Position numbers and translations under genes: made by a program
In this document: positions 4,496 through 64,000 of the stretch, piece after piece
Position numbering within the stretch: the first letter of the stretch is position 1
How the letters are laid out: every line of letters starts with the position of its first letter
The notes under the pieces: generated by a model
What the model was told of the DNA's origin: nothing
Databases searched by the model: none
Seen by the model: only the letters and a program-made list of their open reading frames with translations
Source of the DNA: Cirrosporium novae-zelandiae
Taxonomy: Eukaryota
Assembly (NCBI GenBank): GCA_026023565.1
Contig: JAPETS010000018.1
Location: 1-64,000 of the forward strand
Length of the DNA: 64,000 nucleotides
Direction of reading: 5' to 3'

Positions 4496-7400
4496 ATGGT
4501 GGGACTAGCTGAGCTTCCACTTCCACCTCTACCACCTCCACCTGCACCGCCTGCTGCAACCCCACAGCCACCAATCGAACGTGGGTTTTCAGTTGGACAT
4601 CAAAGGGTTGAGCTCGACATTGACTTTGCGACGCGCAGCTTAAGAGGGTCAACTGACATTACCATCCTCCCTCACTCTAAGGATCTAAAGCATGTGCGGC
4701 TCAACTGCAGACAATGCAAATTGACTCGGCTTACAGTCAATAATAAAGCTCAGAATTCCGAGTACAAGGAACCCTATAGGAATCTGAAGCTACATTTTCA
4801 AAGCAGCATTCACCAATACCACATTTTGGCAAAGAAGGCTGAGAATTTCAAGCAACCACCGGAAGGAGAGTTAGTGATAAATCTTTCCAAGAACGTGCGC
4901 ATAGATGAACTTGACCCGGAAGTATTACCAGATGCTCCAGGCTTGGTAAACGGCGTGACGAGGAAGAATTCGGATGATGCAAACGCAGGAGATGGCTTGC
5001 AAACACCAAGGCCGGTAGAGCAGGTCGCAAGGTTTTCACCAGTTGAGGTCCATATCGAGTTTTCAATCACCGATATTCGTGATGGGCTTCACTTCGTCGG
5101 TCTTGAAGACGGCGATTCTCGATATCCACATGCTTATTCGCGGCATTCACCCTCCGGTTCTGCTTGTTCTATCTTTCCTTGCGTGGATGATTTCGCTTCC
5201 CGACATACTTGGGAGTTTCAGATACGATGTGCTCGAACACTGGGTGATGCCTTCAGTCATCGAAGGGAACATGGAACTAGTAGTAATGCTATTCATAGCA
5301 CCTCGAATAGTGTCCATGGACCTCTTACTAATGGAAACCACGCTCATGGTAGGGGACACACTTCTCATGGAAAGCATATCATACACAAGAATTTTAGTCC
5401 AGAAGATGCTGCACTAGAGATGATGGTGATATGCTCCGGGGACATGACGGATGAGGTAATTCTTTATCAGGTCCTAAGCTAGGAATAATAGGCTAACTGT
5501 CACTGCTATAGATTGTGGACGAAACTGATCCATCGAAAGTCAAGGCCTCTTTTCAGTGCACTACACCGGTCGCACCTCAACATATTGGGTTTGCCGTTGG
5601 TCCATTCGAGCATGTCAACCTCTCCGAGTTTCGTGAAAGCGATGAAGACGACCATCTTGGACAAAATGCAATACCCGTTCATGGCTACTGTCTCCCCGGT
5701 CGAGCCGAGGAAGTTAGGAATACGTGTATTCCTATGGCAAAGGCCATTGACTTCATTACCATTGAATACGGGTCTTATCCGTTTTCGAGCTACAAAATGT
5801 GCTTTGTAGATGATTTGACGACTGATGTATTCAATACGGCTGCTTTATCGATATTCAGCAATCATCTCCTCTTCCCGGAAGAGATAATTGACCCTATCGA
5901 CAACGTTACCTGGGTTTTAGTCTGCGCACTAGCTACACAATGGATCGGTGTCAACATTCCCCCTGACGAAGCTCGAGATTTTTGGTTAGTCATGGGCCTT
6001 CCAGGTTTCATAGCAGGCTCATTCATCAAGAAGCTGTGTGGCAATAACGAGTATCGATATCGCCAGAAAAAAGTTGCAGATGAAGTGTGTGAGCTCGATG
6101 TAAATCGCCCGTCACTACATGAACTAGGTCCGATTTTGTCAATAGACCCGTCGGAGGCACGATTTATGGCTATAAAAGCGCCTTTGGTTCTTTTCATCCT
6201 GGATCGCCGCCTTGTCAAAGCTAGCGGACATGCTGGGCTAAATCGCATTATCACAAGGCTGTTTCTCAATGCCAAAGTTGGAAAGGACCTTCCCAATGGC
6301 GCGATATCAACGGCATATTTTCAGAGACTATGCGAACGTTTTGGTCATGCTAAGCTTGATACTTTCTTCCAGCAATGGGTTTATGGAGCTGGCTGTCCTC
6401 GGTTTGAAGTCACCCAAAGATTCAATAAAAAGAAACTGGTTGTGGAAATGCTCATAGTCCAGAAGCAAGGCGTCTCCGCTGATCCAAAGGATCTTGAGAA
6501 GGATAATTTTATACGTGACGTTAAGGAGGAATTGAATACAGTTTATGCAGGGCCAGTACAACCAGTATTCGCTGGGCCGATGACAATTCGGATTCATGAA
6601 GCAGATGGAACACCCTATGAGCATATCGTTGAGATACGAGAAGCTACCACCAAATTTGAAATACCTTATAATACTAAATATAAGCGTTTAAAACGAAGCA
6701 GGCGACAGAAGGAACGCGCAGCAGCAGCGTCCGGGGTAGATTTCTCAACAGAGGGTCATGATGATGTGCTACTATACTCCCTTGGTGATGTTCTGCAGTC
6801 TGAGGATGAGATCGCTGCATGGCAATTAAGTGACTGGAGCAAAGAAGACGAAGAACGGATGTCCCAAGAATCATATGAATGGATTCGTATGGATGCTGAC
6901 TTCGAATGGATTTGTCGAATGGCTTTCGGTATGCCCGGTTACATGTATGCATCGCAGCTACAACAGGATCGAGATGTCGTCGCCCAGCTTGAGTCCGTAC
7001 ATTACATTGGTCGCCAAAGAAAGCAACCTCCAATCATACCCACACTACTAGTTCGCACACTCATGGATAGAAGGTACTTTCATGGGATCAGGACTACTGC
7101 TGCAGAACTCCTAGCCAATTCAGCTAGAGAGGAGCTCAATTGGATGGGATTGAACCTTCTCGAGAAGGCTTTTCAAGAGCTTTTCTGTTTTACTGACTCC
7201 CCAATGACCCGCTCAAACGACTTTTCCGATAGGTCTTCCTACCGCATTCAGTGCGCAATTATCAAGGCTATTTCTAAAGTACGTGACAACAGCGGTAGAG
7301 CTCCATTGCGTGTCAAACGATTTCTACTTGATAAGTTGAAGTTCAATGACAATTCAGATAACGAGTTTTCGGACTGCTACTATGTCACGACAATCTTAAA

Positions 7401-32503: not shown

Positions 32504-34569
32504 AATGAACAGAGGAGAGGGTTAATCGTTGTTATGAAAGTGGGGTTCTCATTGATTGATATAAGGAAACGAGATTCAAGATTGTTGAATTGGCAGCTTG
32601 TAACTCATTGGAGCTTGGTTAATTAATTTTTTTGAAGATGGGGAAATGCGACGCTAACCGAGCTTTGCTATTTACCACCAACTTAGCATGATGATTCAAC
32701 TCTTAAGAATACTCATTATTATTTTCACAATACTTTGAGTCAGAAGCTAACTACCAAAGAAGTGATGGTTCTCTACTCTTCCCTATAATCATAAGTCTCA
32801 CTACATCTCTTATTCAAATTTGCTTCTCACCACTACAGCTAAGGACTTATAGCACTCTCTCAATCAGTTGAAATCATTTTTGAAGATAATCATTAATACA
32901 ATAACCATGGATTCGAAAATATTTTTTTCATTACTAACGTAGTTTCAAGTTAGCTAGCTAAAGCCACTACCAGTAGCCTCTCACAATAACTGAAGATGTG
33001 TTTAGGCGTAATAGTGATTGAGCATTTCCTTTTTTGGTATGACATGTCCTGGTATAAAACCTAGTTGGCCCCCTAACAATTTCTATCTTTCCTTGAATAT
33101 CCATAATTAACATTTGACTTTTGAATCTATTATCCAAGGACGCAATGAATATACAACTGGGGTTTCTTATAGCGCTTGCCGTTTGCATCGGAAACGCAAC
33201 ACCACTTAACCCCCGAGACACTGTGTTGCTGTCATGTACATGCCATTCCACCATTCGCGATTGTCTTGCAGCATGCAACACTGCTTCACGTTCTCCACTC
33301 TATCATTCTAGACCGAAGACCTAGTACACAGGCACTTATCGCATCTACCACAACAACAGTATACAAACCTACATACAAAACTATCAACAAAATAACGGCC
33401 ACTACTATAAAATTGTCAGCTAAACCGATTCCGAAAACAGCTTTCCCAGTAACTACCACAATGATCTTATAAATCTGCCCTATATAAGCATGTTTGGATA
33501 GAAAGTGATTATCATTTTCACAGTACACTGATAGCTGAGATTTACGAGAGCGCTAACAAAGGATCCGTAGAACTTATTGAGAATATGAGGTTTTTCTATG
33601 TGTTCACATATCTATGCTATTTAATACATATGCACCTTTACGATTGAAAGGGATTACAAACTGGCAAAGAGATCGCAGGTCTTAGGGGTCATTGCTACTG
33701 AAACCCCTAAGTCACTAAAAATAGTGTTAGGCTCTGTTTTCTCGCCGTGGAGCTAAACATGCATGTCCTAAGCATAGTTGAGCTATGCTGACTTGAAATT
33801 TGCTCCTTAGATATTTTTCCCCATTCGTGGCTCCTTAGATAGAGGACAGGAGTGACATGAGTTTTTATTCAGTTGCCGTGCATTAAATTTTATAACACCA
33901 AGGTGCTACGTCATATTCATTCTACCATCTTAGCTATCTTACCTAGGTATCTAGCATATTACTCTATTAACCACAGCATTTCACAGAACCTCATACCTTC
34001 TAAAGATCTCACACTAATCTAAGAACTCAGCTAAAGCAGTACACCCAAACCCCAATTGGAGTAGCATCTTCTCTCATTCAAAACTATTAGACTGAACATA
34101 CGACACTAGGAAATCTTATTCTAGATCAAAGCGCCCTGGTATCAGAGGGAGCTATAGTAACATTCATAACCATAATGACCTGTCTTGGAATAGGAGAAGT
34201 TTAAATAGTACATCTTGTTATAAAAAATTATCAACCACCTTTCATGGCTTATATAACTAGTCTAGTTACTAGGGGAAATGAAATTGGAAAGGTAATCCCT
34301 ATGTCTGTTAGCATACAGTTGGAGCTTTATTCCTGAAACAATCAATCAACTATGTAGGTAGGCCTACGACAATCACATCGTGAAGAGGCCCTAATTGAAA
34401 CAATGACCAGAATAGATAGACAAGGCAGCAAGGTCAACAGCCTTTGAATCTAATCTAACCAAGTCGATAAACCCCACCAATTTTCCACAAGTAAAAAAAC
34501 CAAAAAAATATGTTCAAGATCCTACACCTTTCTTACACAAAAACAAAAAAATTGTCTGAAGACAGGATT

Positions 34570-34707
34570 TGAACCCGACCCGATTTGAACGGATAACCTA
34601 TTAAAGTTGAATGTTAGCCAATTGTTGTACAGGTATTCGTTTTAACCTGTTGGGTGAATTTACCTTCTGATCTGGAGTCAACTGCGCTACCGTTGCGCCA
34701 CGGGTCC
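34570..34707 (-). tRNA. tRNA-Trp(CCA), copy 1, with a 66-nt insert (34598-34663) in the variable loop
   Basis: Exons GGACCCGTGGCGCAACGGTAGCGCAGTTGACTCCAGATCAGAAG + GTTATCCGTTCAAATCGGGTCGGGTTCA (44+28=72 nt) fold into a cloverleaf with A and B boxes; T-run terminator downstream. Confidence 0.92.
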
Positions 34708-34773: not shown

Positions 34774-34796
34774 GGGGGGGGGGGGGGGGGGGGGGG
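34774..34796. repeat. Poly-G tract (23 nt)
   Basis: Read directly; similar tracts at 1-21 (poly-C) and about 935-948. Confidence 0.9.
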
Positions 34797-42055: not shown

Positions 42056-42190
42056 GGACCCGTGGCGCAACGGTAGCGCAGTTGACTCCAGATCAGAAGG
42101 TAAATTCAACCAACAGATAACACAAATACTGTTCAATAATTGGCTAATAATCAACCTAATAGGTTATCCGTTCAAATCGGGTCGGGTTCA
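42056..42190 (+). tRNA. tRNA-Trp(CCA), copy 2, with a 63-nt insert (42100-42162) in the variable loop
   Basis: Exonic sequence identical to copy 1; anticodon CCA at 42088-42090; acceptor stem GGACCCG/CGGGTTC, T-stem ATCCG/CGGGT, T-loop TTCAAAT. Confidence 0.92.
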
Positions 42191-42217: not shown

Positions 42218-42225
42218 TTTTTTTT
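42218..42225 (+). terminator. RNA polymerase III terminator (T8) of tRNA-Trp copy 2
   Basis: T-run about 27 nt downstream of the tRNA 3' end. Confidence 0.75.
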
Positions 42226-43855: not shown

Positions 43856-45262
43856 CTATTGAGATGCACACTGCATCCTTTCCGCACCAGGTGGTACGCC
43901 ATCTTCGTCTTCGTCATCACCGTTAGTGAGCCCTTGCGCTCTGGCTTGATTATGTGCGTCAACATCTTCGAGATCGAAATCCTCTACCATTGCATCTTCG
44001 GTGGGTTTAGCTTGCGGCATTCTGGGCGGCAGGATTTCCTCCAACTTTTCAATGTTTCTCATTTCACCCTTTTGAGGAAACTTGACGTCGAATTGGATAT
44101 AAAGGTTGCCGAAATCGTGATGGCGATAAGACGGCATACCTTGTCCCCGAATCATTTTGACTTGACCTAAAAAACCATATTAGAAAATTTGGTCTACAAA
44201 GCATATCCTTGGAAAGAAATTTACCTGGACTAATGACCTCGCCAGGAAGAATGTTGACTGTCAACCAGCGTTCATCTAAGTGCTCAATGTAGATTGCACC
44301 ACCGGCCAATGCAGTCAGAAGATCAATCTCCGAGTGGTAAAATAGATCGTCGTCCTTGCGCTGGAATCGGGCATGAGGCTTTTGTTCAATTTCAAATTGC
44401 ACATCGCCGGGTAGTAAGCCAGGTATTTGATCTCCTTCACCTTTAAAGTCGATCTTTGTTCCACTCTTAACACCCCTGTCGACATGTACATGAAGTACCT
44501 TCCGCTCGACAATTGTCTTCTTGCCTTGGCATTTCTTGCAGCGGTCTTTATCGCGAATAGTCTCCCCTTCACCTTGGCAATCTGGGCACACGGTCTGGAA
44601 CCGCTGGATCATAGGTCCCATTTGCCGCATCATAGTCTTCATACCCGCACCATTGCATCCAGGGCAAGTTTTGACAGCACCCTCTTTGCCGCCACGACCT
44701 TCGCAGGAACTGCAGATAACAGACTTCTGTAGAGCAAGTTTTGATACCTTTCCTCGATAGATGTCTTCAAGGGAGACTTTGTGAACATGGTGGATTGTGC
44801 GAGCTTTCTTTGGGCCTGTTTCTCTCATTCCGCCACCAAACATTCCGCCAAAGGCGCTGCCGCCCCCGAAGAATTGCGCGAAAAGATCCTCAGCAGCCAT
44901 GCCACCCCCAGCACCACCTTGCTCCAGACCCTCTTCACCATATTGATCGTACAGTTGGCGTTTCTGGGGATCAGAGAGGACTTCGTATGCATGCGAAAGT
45001 TCCTTGAATTTTTCTTGAGCGGCTTCATTGCCTTGATTTTTATCTGTGAAGGAATATTAGACACTAAATCCTAGTGACAATGTATCATGTGAATCAGTAC
45101 CTGGATGCCATTTTAGTGCTCCCTTTTTGTAAGCAGATCTTAATTGTGCTTCCGAGGCATCTGGTGGAACCTATAGATGAGGTTTGTTAGATTCGCACAT
45201 TCAGTAGGCAGGACAAAATCACATACTCCCAGAGTCTCATAAAATTTTGTTTCCTTAACCAT
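43856..45262 (-). CDS. YDJ1: Type I Hsp40 co-chaperone Ydj1/Mas5
   Basis: MVKETKFYETLG J-domain with spliced HPDK, G/F region, CxxCxGxG zinc-finger repeats and C-terminal CaaX box CASQ. Confidence 0.97.
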
Positions 45263-46737: not shown

Positions 46738-47523
46738 CCGTATGGATTGAATCGAATAGAGGATTAGAAGCTCTATAAGTCTATGACTGATGTGACCTTA
46801 TCGTACCGTTTGATAGACTATCGCATACTCACATTCTTATGAGCAACTCATAGTACTAAAATTTCTACATTATTAGATGAAGACGGCCCGATACCAAGCC
46901 CAATCCTAGACTAAGTTACTGTGGACAGCGTATGATACTCTAATCCATAGTATATTTGCCCTGGAACTGCCGATATGAAGAATACAAGTACACAAGGTCC
47001 ATAAATTAGAAATATGGTGAAAGGTAGGTAGCCTAATAAGGCACTACATAGCAAGGACTAGTGATGGACTCGAGTTGACTATAAACACCTATCCAATTAA
47101 AATCAGAAAGTTATCGTAAAAGACTAGATATAAGATGAAAATAGTAAAAGTGAAGCATCATTAAAAAATTAGAATGTTTTGTTGTTGCGTTTTTAATCCT
47201 CATTGGTGGTCAGGGTTAAAAATGTATAATCATATGCAGTATAGGGGAAAATAAAAATTATTGGAAACATACCAGGACCACAGTTTAGGAAAACACCGTG
47301 CTGTCAGGTGTAAGCTTTGGCTCCTTATCAGCAATGGCAAAGTGTAGCTACAAATAATTTCTTAGCGTTGAATATATTTCATCCAGTCATTTGTTCATCA
47401 TCTATGGACGGGCATTCCTCAGGTAACGGCGCCAAGCGTAGCGTCGCTGATATGAAAACCATGAACCCACAATTAGCACTCAATGACCTGAGATACATCG
47501 ATCTCCCACGAGATTCTCCTAGT

Positions 47524-48649
47524 TTAGTCGAAAAGTCCGCCGAAACCTAGGAAGTTATTAGAAACAATTGCATACACACTTTACAGCTTTGCCAGGAAAA
47601 TTTCGTCTTACCTTCATCACCGCTCTCCTCCTCCTCCGATTCTTCTTTCTTCTCCTCCTCTGCTGGCTTGGCCTCTTCTGCTGCCGTACCTGCAGCAGGG
47701 GCAGCGGCCGCATATGCATCAGGATTAGCAATACGGTCCTTGAGCTCCTCGATACCTTCCCAACTGTACTCAGTGGCAACAGCAACTGCCAAAACGTCCT
47801 TGTATGAGTTGAGAAGTGAGTGGATGACGGATGGCAATGTAGGGTAGTTTATTGCCAAAGAGATTTGAGTGACAGTGGCGATAGCACTCTGCAGAGATTC
47901 AAAGAGCTCCTTCTCTTCAATATCCAAAACATTGGAGCCAAAGCATTGTCCGTTGTCATACACCTGAGCAATAGTCATGCCATAGGTGAAGGGAGAAATG
48001 TTCAACATGTTAAGGAGGGTAGCTTCGGAAGCTCCAACCTTATGTCCAGCTTCAACCAACTTCAAGTCGGCAGTAATTTCGATAGTACCACGGGCAATCT
48101 TGGTAGGAACACCGAGGGCTTGGAAGAAAGAGGTCTTTCCGGGTTCCATACCAGTGTTACCAGCGGGGACAAAAACATCGGCTGGGGCGACAGCACCAGC
48201 ACGAGCGGGAGCCGCAACACGATTAGAAAGAATCTTCTCTCGAATATCCTTGAGATCCCCATTGGTGAAAATAAAGCCTATAGATTCAATCAGTACCCAT
48301 AGTATAAGAACATATACACTTTAATTAACGAACCAACGTTGCCCTTAACATGGGGAAGGAGTCGCTCGTATTCAGGGAAATCGGAGAGAAAACCCTTAAT
48401 AGCACGGCGGACCTATCTAAGGGTTAGAAATACGAGATTAAAATTTCCTTAACACGAAATATAGTGAGAACTGACCATAGTGTTCTTTCCCATCAAGACG
48501 ACGGCCTCTCCACGAAGAGAGTGACGAATCTCGTGCATTTGCTGAGATGCGACATTGTCGACGGTGACGATGAAAATTGAATGGTACTCTTCGAGGAGCG
48601 TCTTCAACTTATCAAAGTATCCGGCCTTTGATTCTTTTTTGCCCCCCAT
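47524..48649 (-). CDS. RPP0: 60S acidic ribosomal protein P0 (uL10)
   Basis: [58 protein letters not shown] and acidic tail [14 protein letters not shown]. Confidence 0.98.
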
Positions 48650-62570: not shown

Positions 62571-63567
62571 TGGTAACACGGTACGACAACTGCAACCACT
62601 GACCAATTAGAGAACAATGCTTTCATGTAATATGTAATTGCTTTTAGAATAGGTAAGGTACATACCTCTGTGCATAATTTCTCGAGATTGAATAAAAAAG
62701 AAAAGAAAAAAGCAAGGTGTGAGATTGAGATAAAGAATGATAAATAAAATATTACTAAAGCTGAACCTATGTACTGTGGACAGTGTATTCTGAGAAGTAA
62801 CAACTAGATACTTTGACTCAGAACGCAGAGTTCAGAGCGCATTTGGCTGAAGCTGGTGGACGGAAGCGGCTATGCACAAGGGAAAATGGACTTTATTTGA
62901 TATAAGAATTACTATCCCCAACAACCGTGGCGGTGGGGAGGCTTGCGCAAGCCCAAATACTACGTAGAGGCGACTCCTCCCTCCTAGTGGGAAGTGGACA
63001 AAAACAGTAAACGAGGTAAACGAGACCAGATATACATACATACATACAGTACACACATCCGCAGTACCTTGGACTGTTTCGATTGAAATTGATATTACCG
63101 TGTAGTATATACTTTCATTTTATAAAAAATGAAAGCGAGAAAGCCAGGGCTGATGAGAACATATATATAAAATACTTTTTCGTAGACTATATTGGATCCT
63201 GAGTAGAGGCCCCCAAAGCCAAAATGACTTGGATAGTTTACTTAGGTACCGAGAATGAAATTTGCAAATTTCCAAAATTTCTAGTTTCGGAGCTTTGCCA
63301 AGTCTTTGCCCTTGGACCGGAATAGTAATTATCTGTAGCCGACAGCTCGGCAACCGGCAGTGCTGCTTAGTGTAGGAGCAATAAAGAAAAGAAAAAAAGT
63401 AAAAGAAAATATAACCAAGCTGAATAAAATATCTAATCGTTCATAAGGTATCCATAGCCATAAGCCAAACCGTGTATAAAAAAAAAACCCAAAAAATCCC
63501 CCCAAGAAAACCCAAAAAAAAACCAAAAAAAATAAAAAGCAGGTCACTTGACATGTTCGTCTTGTTG

Positions 63568-63602
<35 letters not shown>
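63568..63602. repeat. (ATA)n microsatellite
   Basis: About 11 uninterrupted units, read directly. Confidence 0.9.
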
Positions 63603-64000
63603 TGTTGGGATTAAAGAGTCCTGAATCAGAACCAGCGTTAGACCCTGGTGTCCGTTTCTAGGCTCTCTCTAGGCTCTTCTCTAGACGTAGACCCTCTTTT
63701 AAAGCCTCTTCATCTCTCTAGGATCTATTAACTTACACAACCACAAGAAACCCCTTTTAACTACCTGGGTACCTAGGTAGTTATCTGATCCGAAAATGGC
63801 CACTCACCCACATCCTAACCTCCCACCAATTAAATCAGATGAATTCAATGTGGGAGAGAGACAAGCCATGCCAAGTTCAAGAAACCCTGTACCATAACTG
63901 TGTGTAGTATTCCTTAACATTTTAGCATTCTTACTGTTTCAGCAATGGTTCGGGGACCATTTTAGAAATGATCAAACTCCACGAGTCAATTAGGAACCTT

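Follow-up and report, generated by a model that had tools for sequence, protein, structure and literature searches.

Can the transcript of a nuclear tRNA gene be matured by the spliceosome? The question is raised by a 64,000-nucleotide (nt) stretch of the genome of the fungus Cirrosporium novae-zelandiae (assembly GCA_026023565.1, contig JAPETS010000018.1, positions 1 to 64,000 of the forward strand; hereafter the window, GC content 43.8%), in which a tRNA-Trp gene is interrupted in its variable loop by an insert that resembles a messenger RNA (mRNA) intron. We found two such loci in the window. From comparison of their sequences, we consider the chances even that both are live tRNA-Trp(CCA) genes of the RNA polymerase III (Pol III) type, with the variable loop split by a spliceosomal intron of the U2-type GT-AG class.

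Two interrupted tRNA-Trp genes

Copy B, at 42056-42190 on the forward strand, was the subject of the initial annotation, whose quoted sequence proved exact on direct reading. That annotation had described an insert in the variable loop that begins GTAAAT, carries GCTAAT near its 3' end and ends TAG, and had stated that cutting out 42100-42162 yields a 72-nt tRNA. We read the same elements, the second of them in full as GGCTAAT, and ARAGORN, given the script-spliced sequence, called a 72-nt tRNA-Trp(cca). This product matches an intron-less tRNA-Trp gene of a metagenome contig (L004, described below) over 20 consecutive positions, among them those of the anticodon loop, of the 3' strand of its stem and of the variable loop, in keeping with the variable-loop placement. 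The junction had been assigned to positions 45/46, which fits the AAG/GTT context (here and below, a slash after an exon sequence marks the exon-insert boundary or the spliced junction), but an AGGT repeat leaves five equivalent registers (43/44 to 47/48); the product is identical in all five, and GT...AG ends occur in just one. The feature had also been treated as a single locus, overlooking a second tRNA-Trp copy at 34570-34707 on the reverse strand (copy A). Against the Rfam tRNA family RF00005 (gathering score 29), copy A scores 44.1 bits and copy B 41.7 bits, and after script removal of 34663-34598 copy A is likewise called by ARAGORN as a 72-nt tRNA-Trp(cca). With default settings, ARAGORN reports no tRNA in the whole window. 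The parts of the two genes are as follows:

42056-42099, forward strand: exon 1 of copy B, covering tRNA-Trp positions 1-45 (5' strand of the acceptor, D arm, anticodon arm containing CCA and the initial two bases of the variable loop); RF00005 and ARAGORN cloverleaf; 0/44 differences from copy A
42100-42162, forward strand: copy B insert, 63 nt; GTAAAT 5' site, GGCTAAT at 42142-42148, TCAAC at 42151-42155, TAG end
42150-42162, forward strand: exon only if the intron lies at the canonical position between 37 and 38 (weighed below); A38, TCAAC serving as 3' strand of the anticodon stem, and the start of a 10-nt variable loop; ARAGORN with option -i
42163-42190, forward strand: copy B exon 2, positions 46-73 (variable-loop GTT, T arm, acceptor 3' strand, A73); RF00005 and ARAGORN; 0/28 differences from copy A
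42218-42225, forward strand: T8 run, likely Pol III terminator, 28 nt past A73 of copy B; read directly
34664-34707, reverse strand: copy A exon 1, positions 1-45; same sequence as in copy B
34598-34663, reverse strand: copy A insert, 66 nt; GTAAAT, GGCTAAC at 34619-34613, TCAAC at 34610-34606, TAG; homologous to the copy B insert
34570-34597, reverse strand: copy A exon 2, positions 46-73; same sequence as in copy B
34545-34551, reverse strand: T7 run, likely Pol III terminator, 19 nt past A73 of copy A; read directly

Both copies carry an A box (TGGCGCAACGG) in the D arm and a B box (GTTCAAATC) in the T arm, each read directly, as well as an AACAA-like element 7-13 nt upstream. A and B boxes, T runs and an AACAA element are read here as Pol III signals, and because both loci have them, transcription by Pol III is likely. 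When the copies were aligned, none of the 72 exon positions differed, while 12 of 66 columns differed in the inserts (3 of the 12 being indels), 40/72 in the upstream flanks and 33/64 in the downstream flanks (exon versus insert divergence, Fisher exact test, p = 8e-5). To judge from this alignment, the tRNA-Trp exons of both loci are under selection. As the exons are unchanged beside diverged inserts and flanks, the loci are not decaying pseudogenes, and removal of the insert has to work. Both copies accordingly look like functional tRNA-Trp(CCA) genes, with a CCA-bearing cloverleaf and purifying selection on the exons, subject to the caveat of a G27.A43 mismatch.

Each insert can also form an internal hairpin, AACAG with CTGTT in copy B (42112-42116 and 42129-42133) and ACAGG with CCTGT in copy A (34650-34646 and 34633-34629). 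The hairpin is preserved through a compensating indel, ACAG with CTGT in copy B corresponding to ACAGG with CCTGT in copy A. The motif TCAAC is present twice in the copy B insert, at 42106-42110 and 42151-42155. The first of these lies within AAATTCAACC, at about the place of the B box in an intron-less gene and with a loose likeness to a B box (copy A has TCACC), and it may derive from a T loop that was duplicated, or represent a pseudo-B box within the intron. A mobile element or repeat was considered and rejected, copy A being the sole other match to the insert within the window. The forward strand has 23 consecutive G residues at 34774-34796 (C23 when read on copy A's strand), 67 nt upstream of the first base of this copy.

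Splice signals and the mRNA introns of the window

Both inserts start as AAG/GTAAAT, have GGCTAAT or GGCTAAC 15 or 16 nt before their end with no AG in between, and close with TAG/G; the sole difference between the copies in the branch motif is T or C at the Y of CTRAY. The extended 5' site, the CTRAY 10-25 nt upstream of the end, the YAG as the first AG after it and the length are those of a U2-type GT-AG intron. The host is not the usual one for this class, namely a gene transcribed by RNA polymerase II (Pol II), but a tRNA gene that has A and B boxes as well as a T7 or T8 run downstream. A Pol II host is not an absolute feature, because U6 and rRNA genes carry such introns.

For comparison with mRNA introns, we used the DnaJ open reading frame (ORF) at 44064-45056 on the reverse strand, which is 100% identical to a 411-amino-acid Hsp40 protein of a metagenome-assembled Cirrosporium novae-zelandiae (NCBI); the next Hsp40 matches are from Chaetothyriales, Dothideomycetes and lichen fungi, which places the window in a filamentous ascomycete (Pezizomycotina). 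Through this identical protein (P0001), three introns could be mapped exactly: one of 56 nt (GTATGT, then TCTAAC, 16 nt, TAG), one of 57 nt (GTACTG, then TCTAAT, 13 nt, CAG) and one of 58 nt that lies 2 kb from copy B (44224-44167; CAG/GTAAAT, then TCTAAT, 13 nt, TAG). Ten more putative mRNA introns were picked by eye from ORF-joining and intron-like scans, partly through CTRAY. Because CTRAY guided the choice, branch statistics for these ten are circular, and independent evidence comes solely from their 5' sites and lengths. Across all 13 putative mRNA introns the length ranges from 47 to 108 nt (median 57), compared with 63 and 66 nt for the tRNA inserts, and the start is GTA or GTG in 12 cases and GTC in one. 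Their branch-to-end distances are 10-25 nt, and one ORF-joining intron (5456-5511) also has GGCTAAC as its branch-like site. The earlier statement that the insert has the size of the mRNA introns of the window agrees with these data, and its 5', branch-like and 3' sites match those of the mapped introns.

How often such signals arise by chance was estimated from 400,000 random 63-mers of window composition, scored for at least 3/4 matches to AAGT in the 5' site and a CTRAY located 10-25 nt before the end without an intervening AG. Under these thresholds, which were set after the sequence had been seen, 0.15% of the 63-mers show the remaining signals when GT...AG is given, and 0/400,000 pass when GT and AG are demanded as well. 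If the boundaries are left free, the window contains 36 intron-like segments, compared with a mean of 36.4 in 20 random windows. The splice signals count as evidence only because tRNA homology fixes the ends of the inserts. In composition, the inserts are richer in A (0.46 and 0.41) than the 13 mRNA introns (0.23-0.35), and their longest T run is at most 3, compared with T4 or longer in 7/13 of the putative mRNA introns. Such a composition is consistent with read-through by Pol III but does not decide the matter, and T-run avoidance is a weak discriminator.

If the spliceosomal reading is right, Pol III would make a precursor of about 135 nt plus a trailer, AAG/GUAAAU and GGCUAAY would be recognised by U1 and U2, and the spliceosome would join G45 to G46, much as it splices the Pol III transcript of intron-bearing fungal U6 genes. 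The 72-nt body, with the spliced junction ...CCAGAUCAGAAG/GUUAUCC..., would then fold and have its ends processed. Spliceosomal removal of the insert is what we infer. The TCAAC of the insert pairs perfectly with positions 27-31 (GTTGA), and GUUGA:UCAAC could be a helix of the precursor only, which would leave the 5' splice site and the branch site single-stranded and hold positions 32-45 in an open loop until splicing. Alternatively, TCAAC may be a relic of an origin of the insert through tandem duplication around AGGT, an origin suggested by the likeness of the insert's 3' part to positions 38-43, seen in the window and in two metagenome loci (L006 and L008, below).

Two further observations concern other parts of the window. 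A small nucleolar RNA of the box C/D class (snoRNA; Rfam Afu_298, 58.8 bits) at 47156-47237 on the reverse strand lies just downstream of a ribosomal protein P0-like ORF (47550-48320, reverse strand) and overlaps an intron-like GT...AG segment (47272-47199); this snoRNA may be intron-encoded in its host transcript. Four consecutive ORFs in the same frame on the reverse strand, separated by single stops (62610-62831, 62835-63119, 63123-63440 and 63444-63668), have the appearance of a gene or mobile element that point mutations have eroded.

Metagenome relatives and competing readings

Contig collections were scanned with GACTCCAGATCAGAAGGTR, the end of exon 1 followed by GTR. In metagenome contigs, 8 loci matched, of which 3 are tRNA-Trp-like with an insert at this site (L004, L006 and L008); the other 5 were judged by eye to be non-tRNA, the 5' half of the tRNA being missing upstream, and cmscan was run on the 3 tRNA-like loci only. 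Among prokaryote genome contigs, 6 loci matched and none was tRNA-like by eye, and viral contigs gave 0 matches. All of the tRNA-like matches have an insert starting GTA, and none has a mere point change. L008 has a 52-nt insert (GTAAAC...TTGGCTCAT...CAG) that aligns with the window insert, as does its upstream region, and is homologous to it. L006 has a 55-nt insert (GTAAGC...TCTAAC...CAG/GTT) with no alignment to the window insert, and a T13 run directly past the gene. In L004, the insert follows AAG, is 36 nt long and lacks an AG in register. An 819-nt stretch of L004 (1-819) holds three identical intron-less tRNA-Trp genes (67.7 bits each) and one degenerate insert-bearing copy (36.5 bits). 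We propose tentatively, with slightly more doubt than belief, that in a lineage of Pezizomycotina the spliceosome matures tRNA-Trp, that the window and L008 share an old variable-loop intron that has since diverged, and that the TCAAC of the window acts as a decoy strand that, by pairing with the 5' strand of the anticodon stem, delays folding until the intron is out. If so, the supply of tRNA-Trp would be tied to spliceosome capacity, a situation comparable to the ribosomal DNA (rDNA) introns proposed to slow the growth of lichen fungi.

Several observations weigh against a spliceosomal intron, in addition to the after-the-fact thresholds and the free-boundary count given above. L008 is degenerate (AACGATA in the D loop, TCCAAAT in the T loop and a single mismatch in the acceptor), as are L006 (a 5-nt T loop and 28 bits, under the gathering score) and the insert copy of L004 when compared with its intact neighbours (36.5 versus 67.7 bits). 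L006 has an earlier AG 8 nt past the branch A, the inserts of L008 and L006 end TCAG/A and TCAG/G and are there complementary to their own positions 27-31 (TCTGA), and the recurrence of inserts at this site is partly ascertainment, because the scan pattern demanded an intact proximal segment followed by GTR. In the window itself, the anticodon stem of the 72-nt product is weak, with G27.A43 and U28.G42 in the ARAGORN drawing, and positions 27-31 pair perfectly with the TCAAC inside the insert and poorly with the TCAGA of the 72-nt product. Relative to L008, the window has apparently changed at 27-28 together with the distal segment and not with the proximal TCAGA. The 72-nt product scores 111.5 in ARAGORN, compared with 119.6 for the intron-less L004 gene and with 117.9 and 121.6 for products of 77 or 78 nt, and its cloverleaf energy is -18.7 kcal/mol (a value that includes the G.A pair, which is poorly treated in the energy model), compared with -23.7 and -23.8 kcal/mol for these longer products. 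The longer products come from the alternative that ARAGORN prefers and that the initial annotation overlooked, even though its description of a variable-loop insert with mRNA-intron signals stands: a canonical intron at 37/38 cut by the tRNA splicing endonuclease (SEN/TSEN), 58 nt long in copy B (~42093-42149) and 60 nt in copy A. Exon 2 would then run from A38 or U38 into TCAAC, the tRNA would be 77 or 78 nt long with a variable loop of 10 or 11 nt, and ATCAGAAGGT after G37 would be the fossil of an internal tandem duplication. ARAGORN -i models this intron in 2/2 window copies (i(36,58) and i(36,60)). It explains why positions 27-28 pair perfectly with the TCAAC of the insert, which is present in both copies and gives five Watson-Crick pairs (GTTGA:TCAAC), and poorly with TCAGA. 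In copy A, the cloverleaf of this product is the minimum-energy fold. TTGG, which lies in the most conserved block of the insert, is able to pair with CCAG of the anticodon loop in folds of this model, in the manner of anticodon-intron helices. The extra loop bases would fall where long variable arms are inserted. The position follows the 37/38 rule for eukaryotic tRNA introns (excerpt of PMC10485636).

A canonical intron nevertheless comes at a cost. It requires the 5' site and the branch signals to have arisen by chance (0.15% given GT...AG) and a perfect fossil of positions 38-47 to persist inside an intron that is otherwise 15% diverged (9/59 columns, copy A versus copy B). In the part that only this reading counts as exon, 3/14 columns differ between the copies, against 0/62 in the exon positions common to both readings (p = 0.005), so that the two genes would make different tRNAs, with A or U at position 38 and a loop of 10 or 11 nt, and the product would not be a standard class I tRNA. 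A long variable loop is not known to us from any cytosolic tRNA-Trp. C32 in both copies stands opposite the A located three bases upstream of the 3' cut, and 1/4 pairs form in the central helix; 32 and -3 are presumably the positions of the proximal anticodon-intron pair, which would therefore be absent. This pair is described as the one conserved and critical pair (excerpt of PMC10485636). ARAGORN -i gives no canonical-intron model for L004, L006 or L008 (0/3), and when L006 and L008 are read by eye in the same way, a 2-nt variable loop is left. Positions 37-45 together with the first two bases of the insert (the ten bases after G37 included) match the intron-less L004 gene exactly. These ancestral bases, kept upstream of the insert, favour the variable-loop site, as all of them would be intron under the 37/38 model. 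Considering both sides, we regard a canonical intron as unlikely, if a serious contender. Non-functional pseudogenes with an acquired insertion, the tRNA being supplied by intron-less genes elsewhere, are improbable. In a eukaryotic tRNA gene, an insertion at a site other than 37/38 usually leads to its being regarded as a pseudogene (excerpt of PMC4090602), the three metagenome relatives look degenerate, next to the L004 insert copy stand three intact copies with no intron, and the anticodon stem of the 72-nt product contains a mismatch; against this, the exons show 0/72 differences while the inserts have diverged by 18% and the flanks by about 50%, and the A and B boxes, the T-run terminator and the AACAA-like upstream element are retained in both copies. 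Gene conversion from an intron-less copy would have wiped out the insert. A non-canonical variable-loop intron cut by the splicing endonuclease at a bulge-helix-bulge (BHB) or relaxed BHB motif is very improbable, even though 45/46 is among the archaeal non-canonical sites, ectopic introns exist in some eukaryotes (both in excerpts of PMC4090602) and the insert hairpin is kept by a compensating indel. In the two window copies and L004, L006 and L008, the outer helix has 0 bp in all five at every allowed register, and the central helix reaches at best 3/4 pairs and never 4 bp. For the fungal enzymes, dependence on the body of the mature tRNA and introns placed at 37/38 are described (excerpt of PMC10485636). 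A BHB or relaxed (hBH or HBh') intron was rejected, as two 3-nt bulges around a 4-bp helix were not found in these five sequences.

Significance and known systems

The precedents named in the initial annotation, spliceosomal introns in fungal U6 and rRNA genes, are in print (excerpts of PMC5855946 and PMC8527467), and no description of spliceosomal tRNA maturation was known to its author. Our full-text literature search, with the sequence string included, likewise found no paper on a spliceosomal tRNA intron, with most subscription journals and supplements lying outside its reach. A list of spliceosomal introns outside mRNA names U6 (Pol III), U1, U2, U5 and rRNA genes, and tRNA is absent from that list (excerpt of PMC5855946). 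A lichen spliceosomal intron was removed by yeast from rRNA made by RNA polymerase I (Pol I; excerpt of PMC8527467). A 2023 tRNA review names the spliceosome once, as a contrast only (excerpts of PMC10275265), and a 2025 paper describes the three kinds of intron in eukaryotes as, to all appearance, entirely unrelated (excerpt of PMC12530127).

tRNA introns and spliceosomal introns are indeed treated as unrelated classes in current texts, a division that a spliceosome-dependent tRNA would break. Such a tRNA would represent an undescribed route of tRNA maturation, add a member to the few non-Pol II genes so far listed with introns of the mRNA type (U6, rRNA) and couple translation capacity to splicing capacity. 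It would also offer a clean natural substrate for studying how the spliceosome engages a fast-folding Pol III transcript. As default ARAGORN is blind to these genes and the -i option gives a 37/38 intron and a 77- or 78-nt tRNA, genes of this kind either go unnoticed or receive a wrong model without warning. Should the canonical intron be the right reading, a cytosolic tRNA-Trp with a variable loop of 10 or 11 nt and a fossil half-stem in its intron would still be unusual.

Among the closest known systems are the mRNA-type introns of fungal small nuclear RNA genes, above all of the Pol III-transcribed U6 gene, for example that of Schizosaccharomyces pombe (Tani and Ohshima 1989, 1991, cited in an excerpt of PMC5855946). 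There, too, a short GT-AG intron with canonical 5', branch and 3' sites lies in a small structured non-coding gene of a fungus with Pol III features. Unlike U6, the tRNA host is not part of the spliceosome, so that the origin of the insert is not accounted for by reverse splicing into a sequence beside the active site. The ascomycete and lichen rDNA introns (Bhattacharya et al. 2000, cited in excerpts of PMC8527467 and PMC5855946) are similar in being mRNA-type introns in a non-Pol II gene of Pezizomycotina; they differ in lying in a Pol I rRNA rather than a Pol III tRNA, and their removal was shown in yeast, whereas here it is predicted from sequence alone. As with the canonical introns processed by SEN/TSEN and tRNA ligase, a nuclear tRNA gene is split, and a 37/38 model can be drawn for both copies; unlike in those introns, this model gives a variable loop of 10 or 11 nt, lacks the proximal pair and turns ancestral positions 38-47 into intron. 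The BHB introns of archaea, Cyanidioschyzon merolae and nucleomorphs (excerpt of PMC4090602; PMC3978253) share the location outside the anticodon loop, nominally at 45/46. They differ in that no BHB or relaxed BHB can be formed here, and in that the host is a fungus with a presumably heterotetrameric, ruler-type enzyme. Placed among these systems, the feature would be an mRNA-type intron in a non-Pol II gene, and the new element would be its tRNA host.

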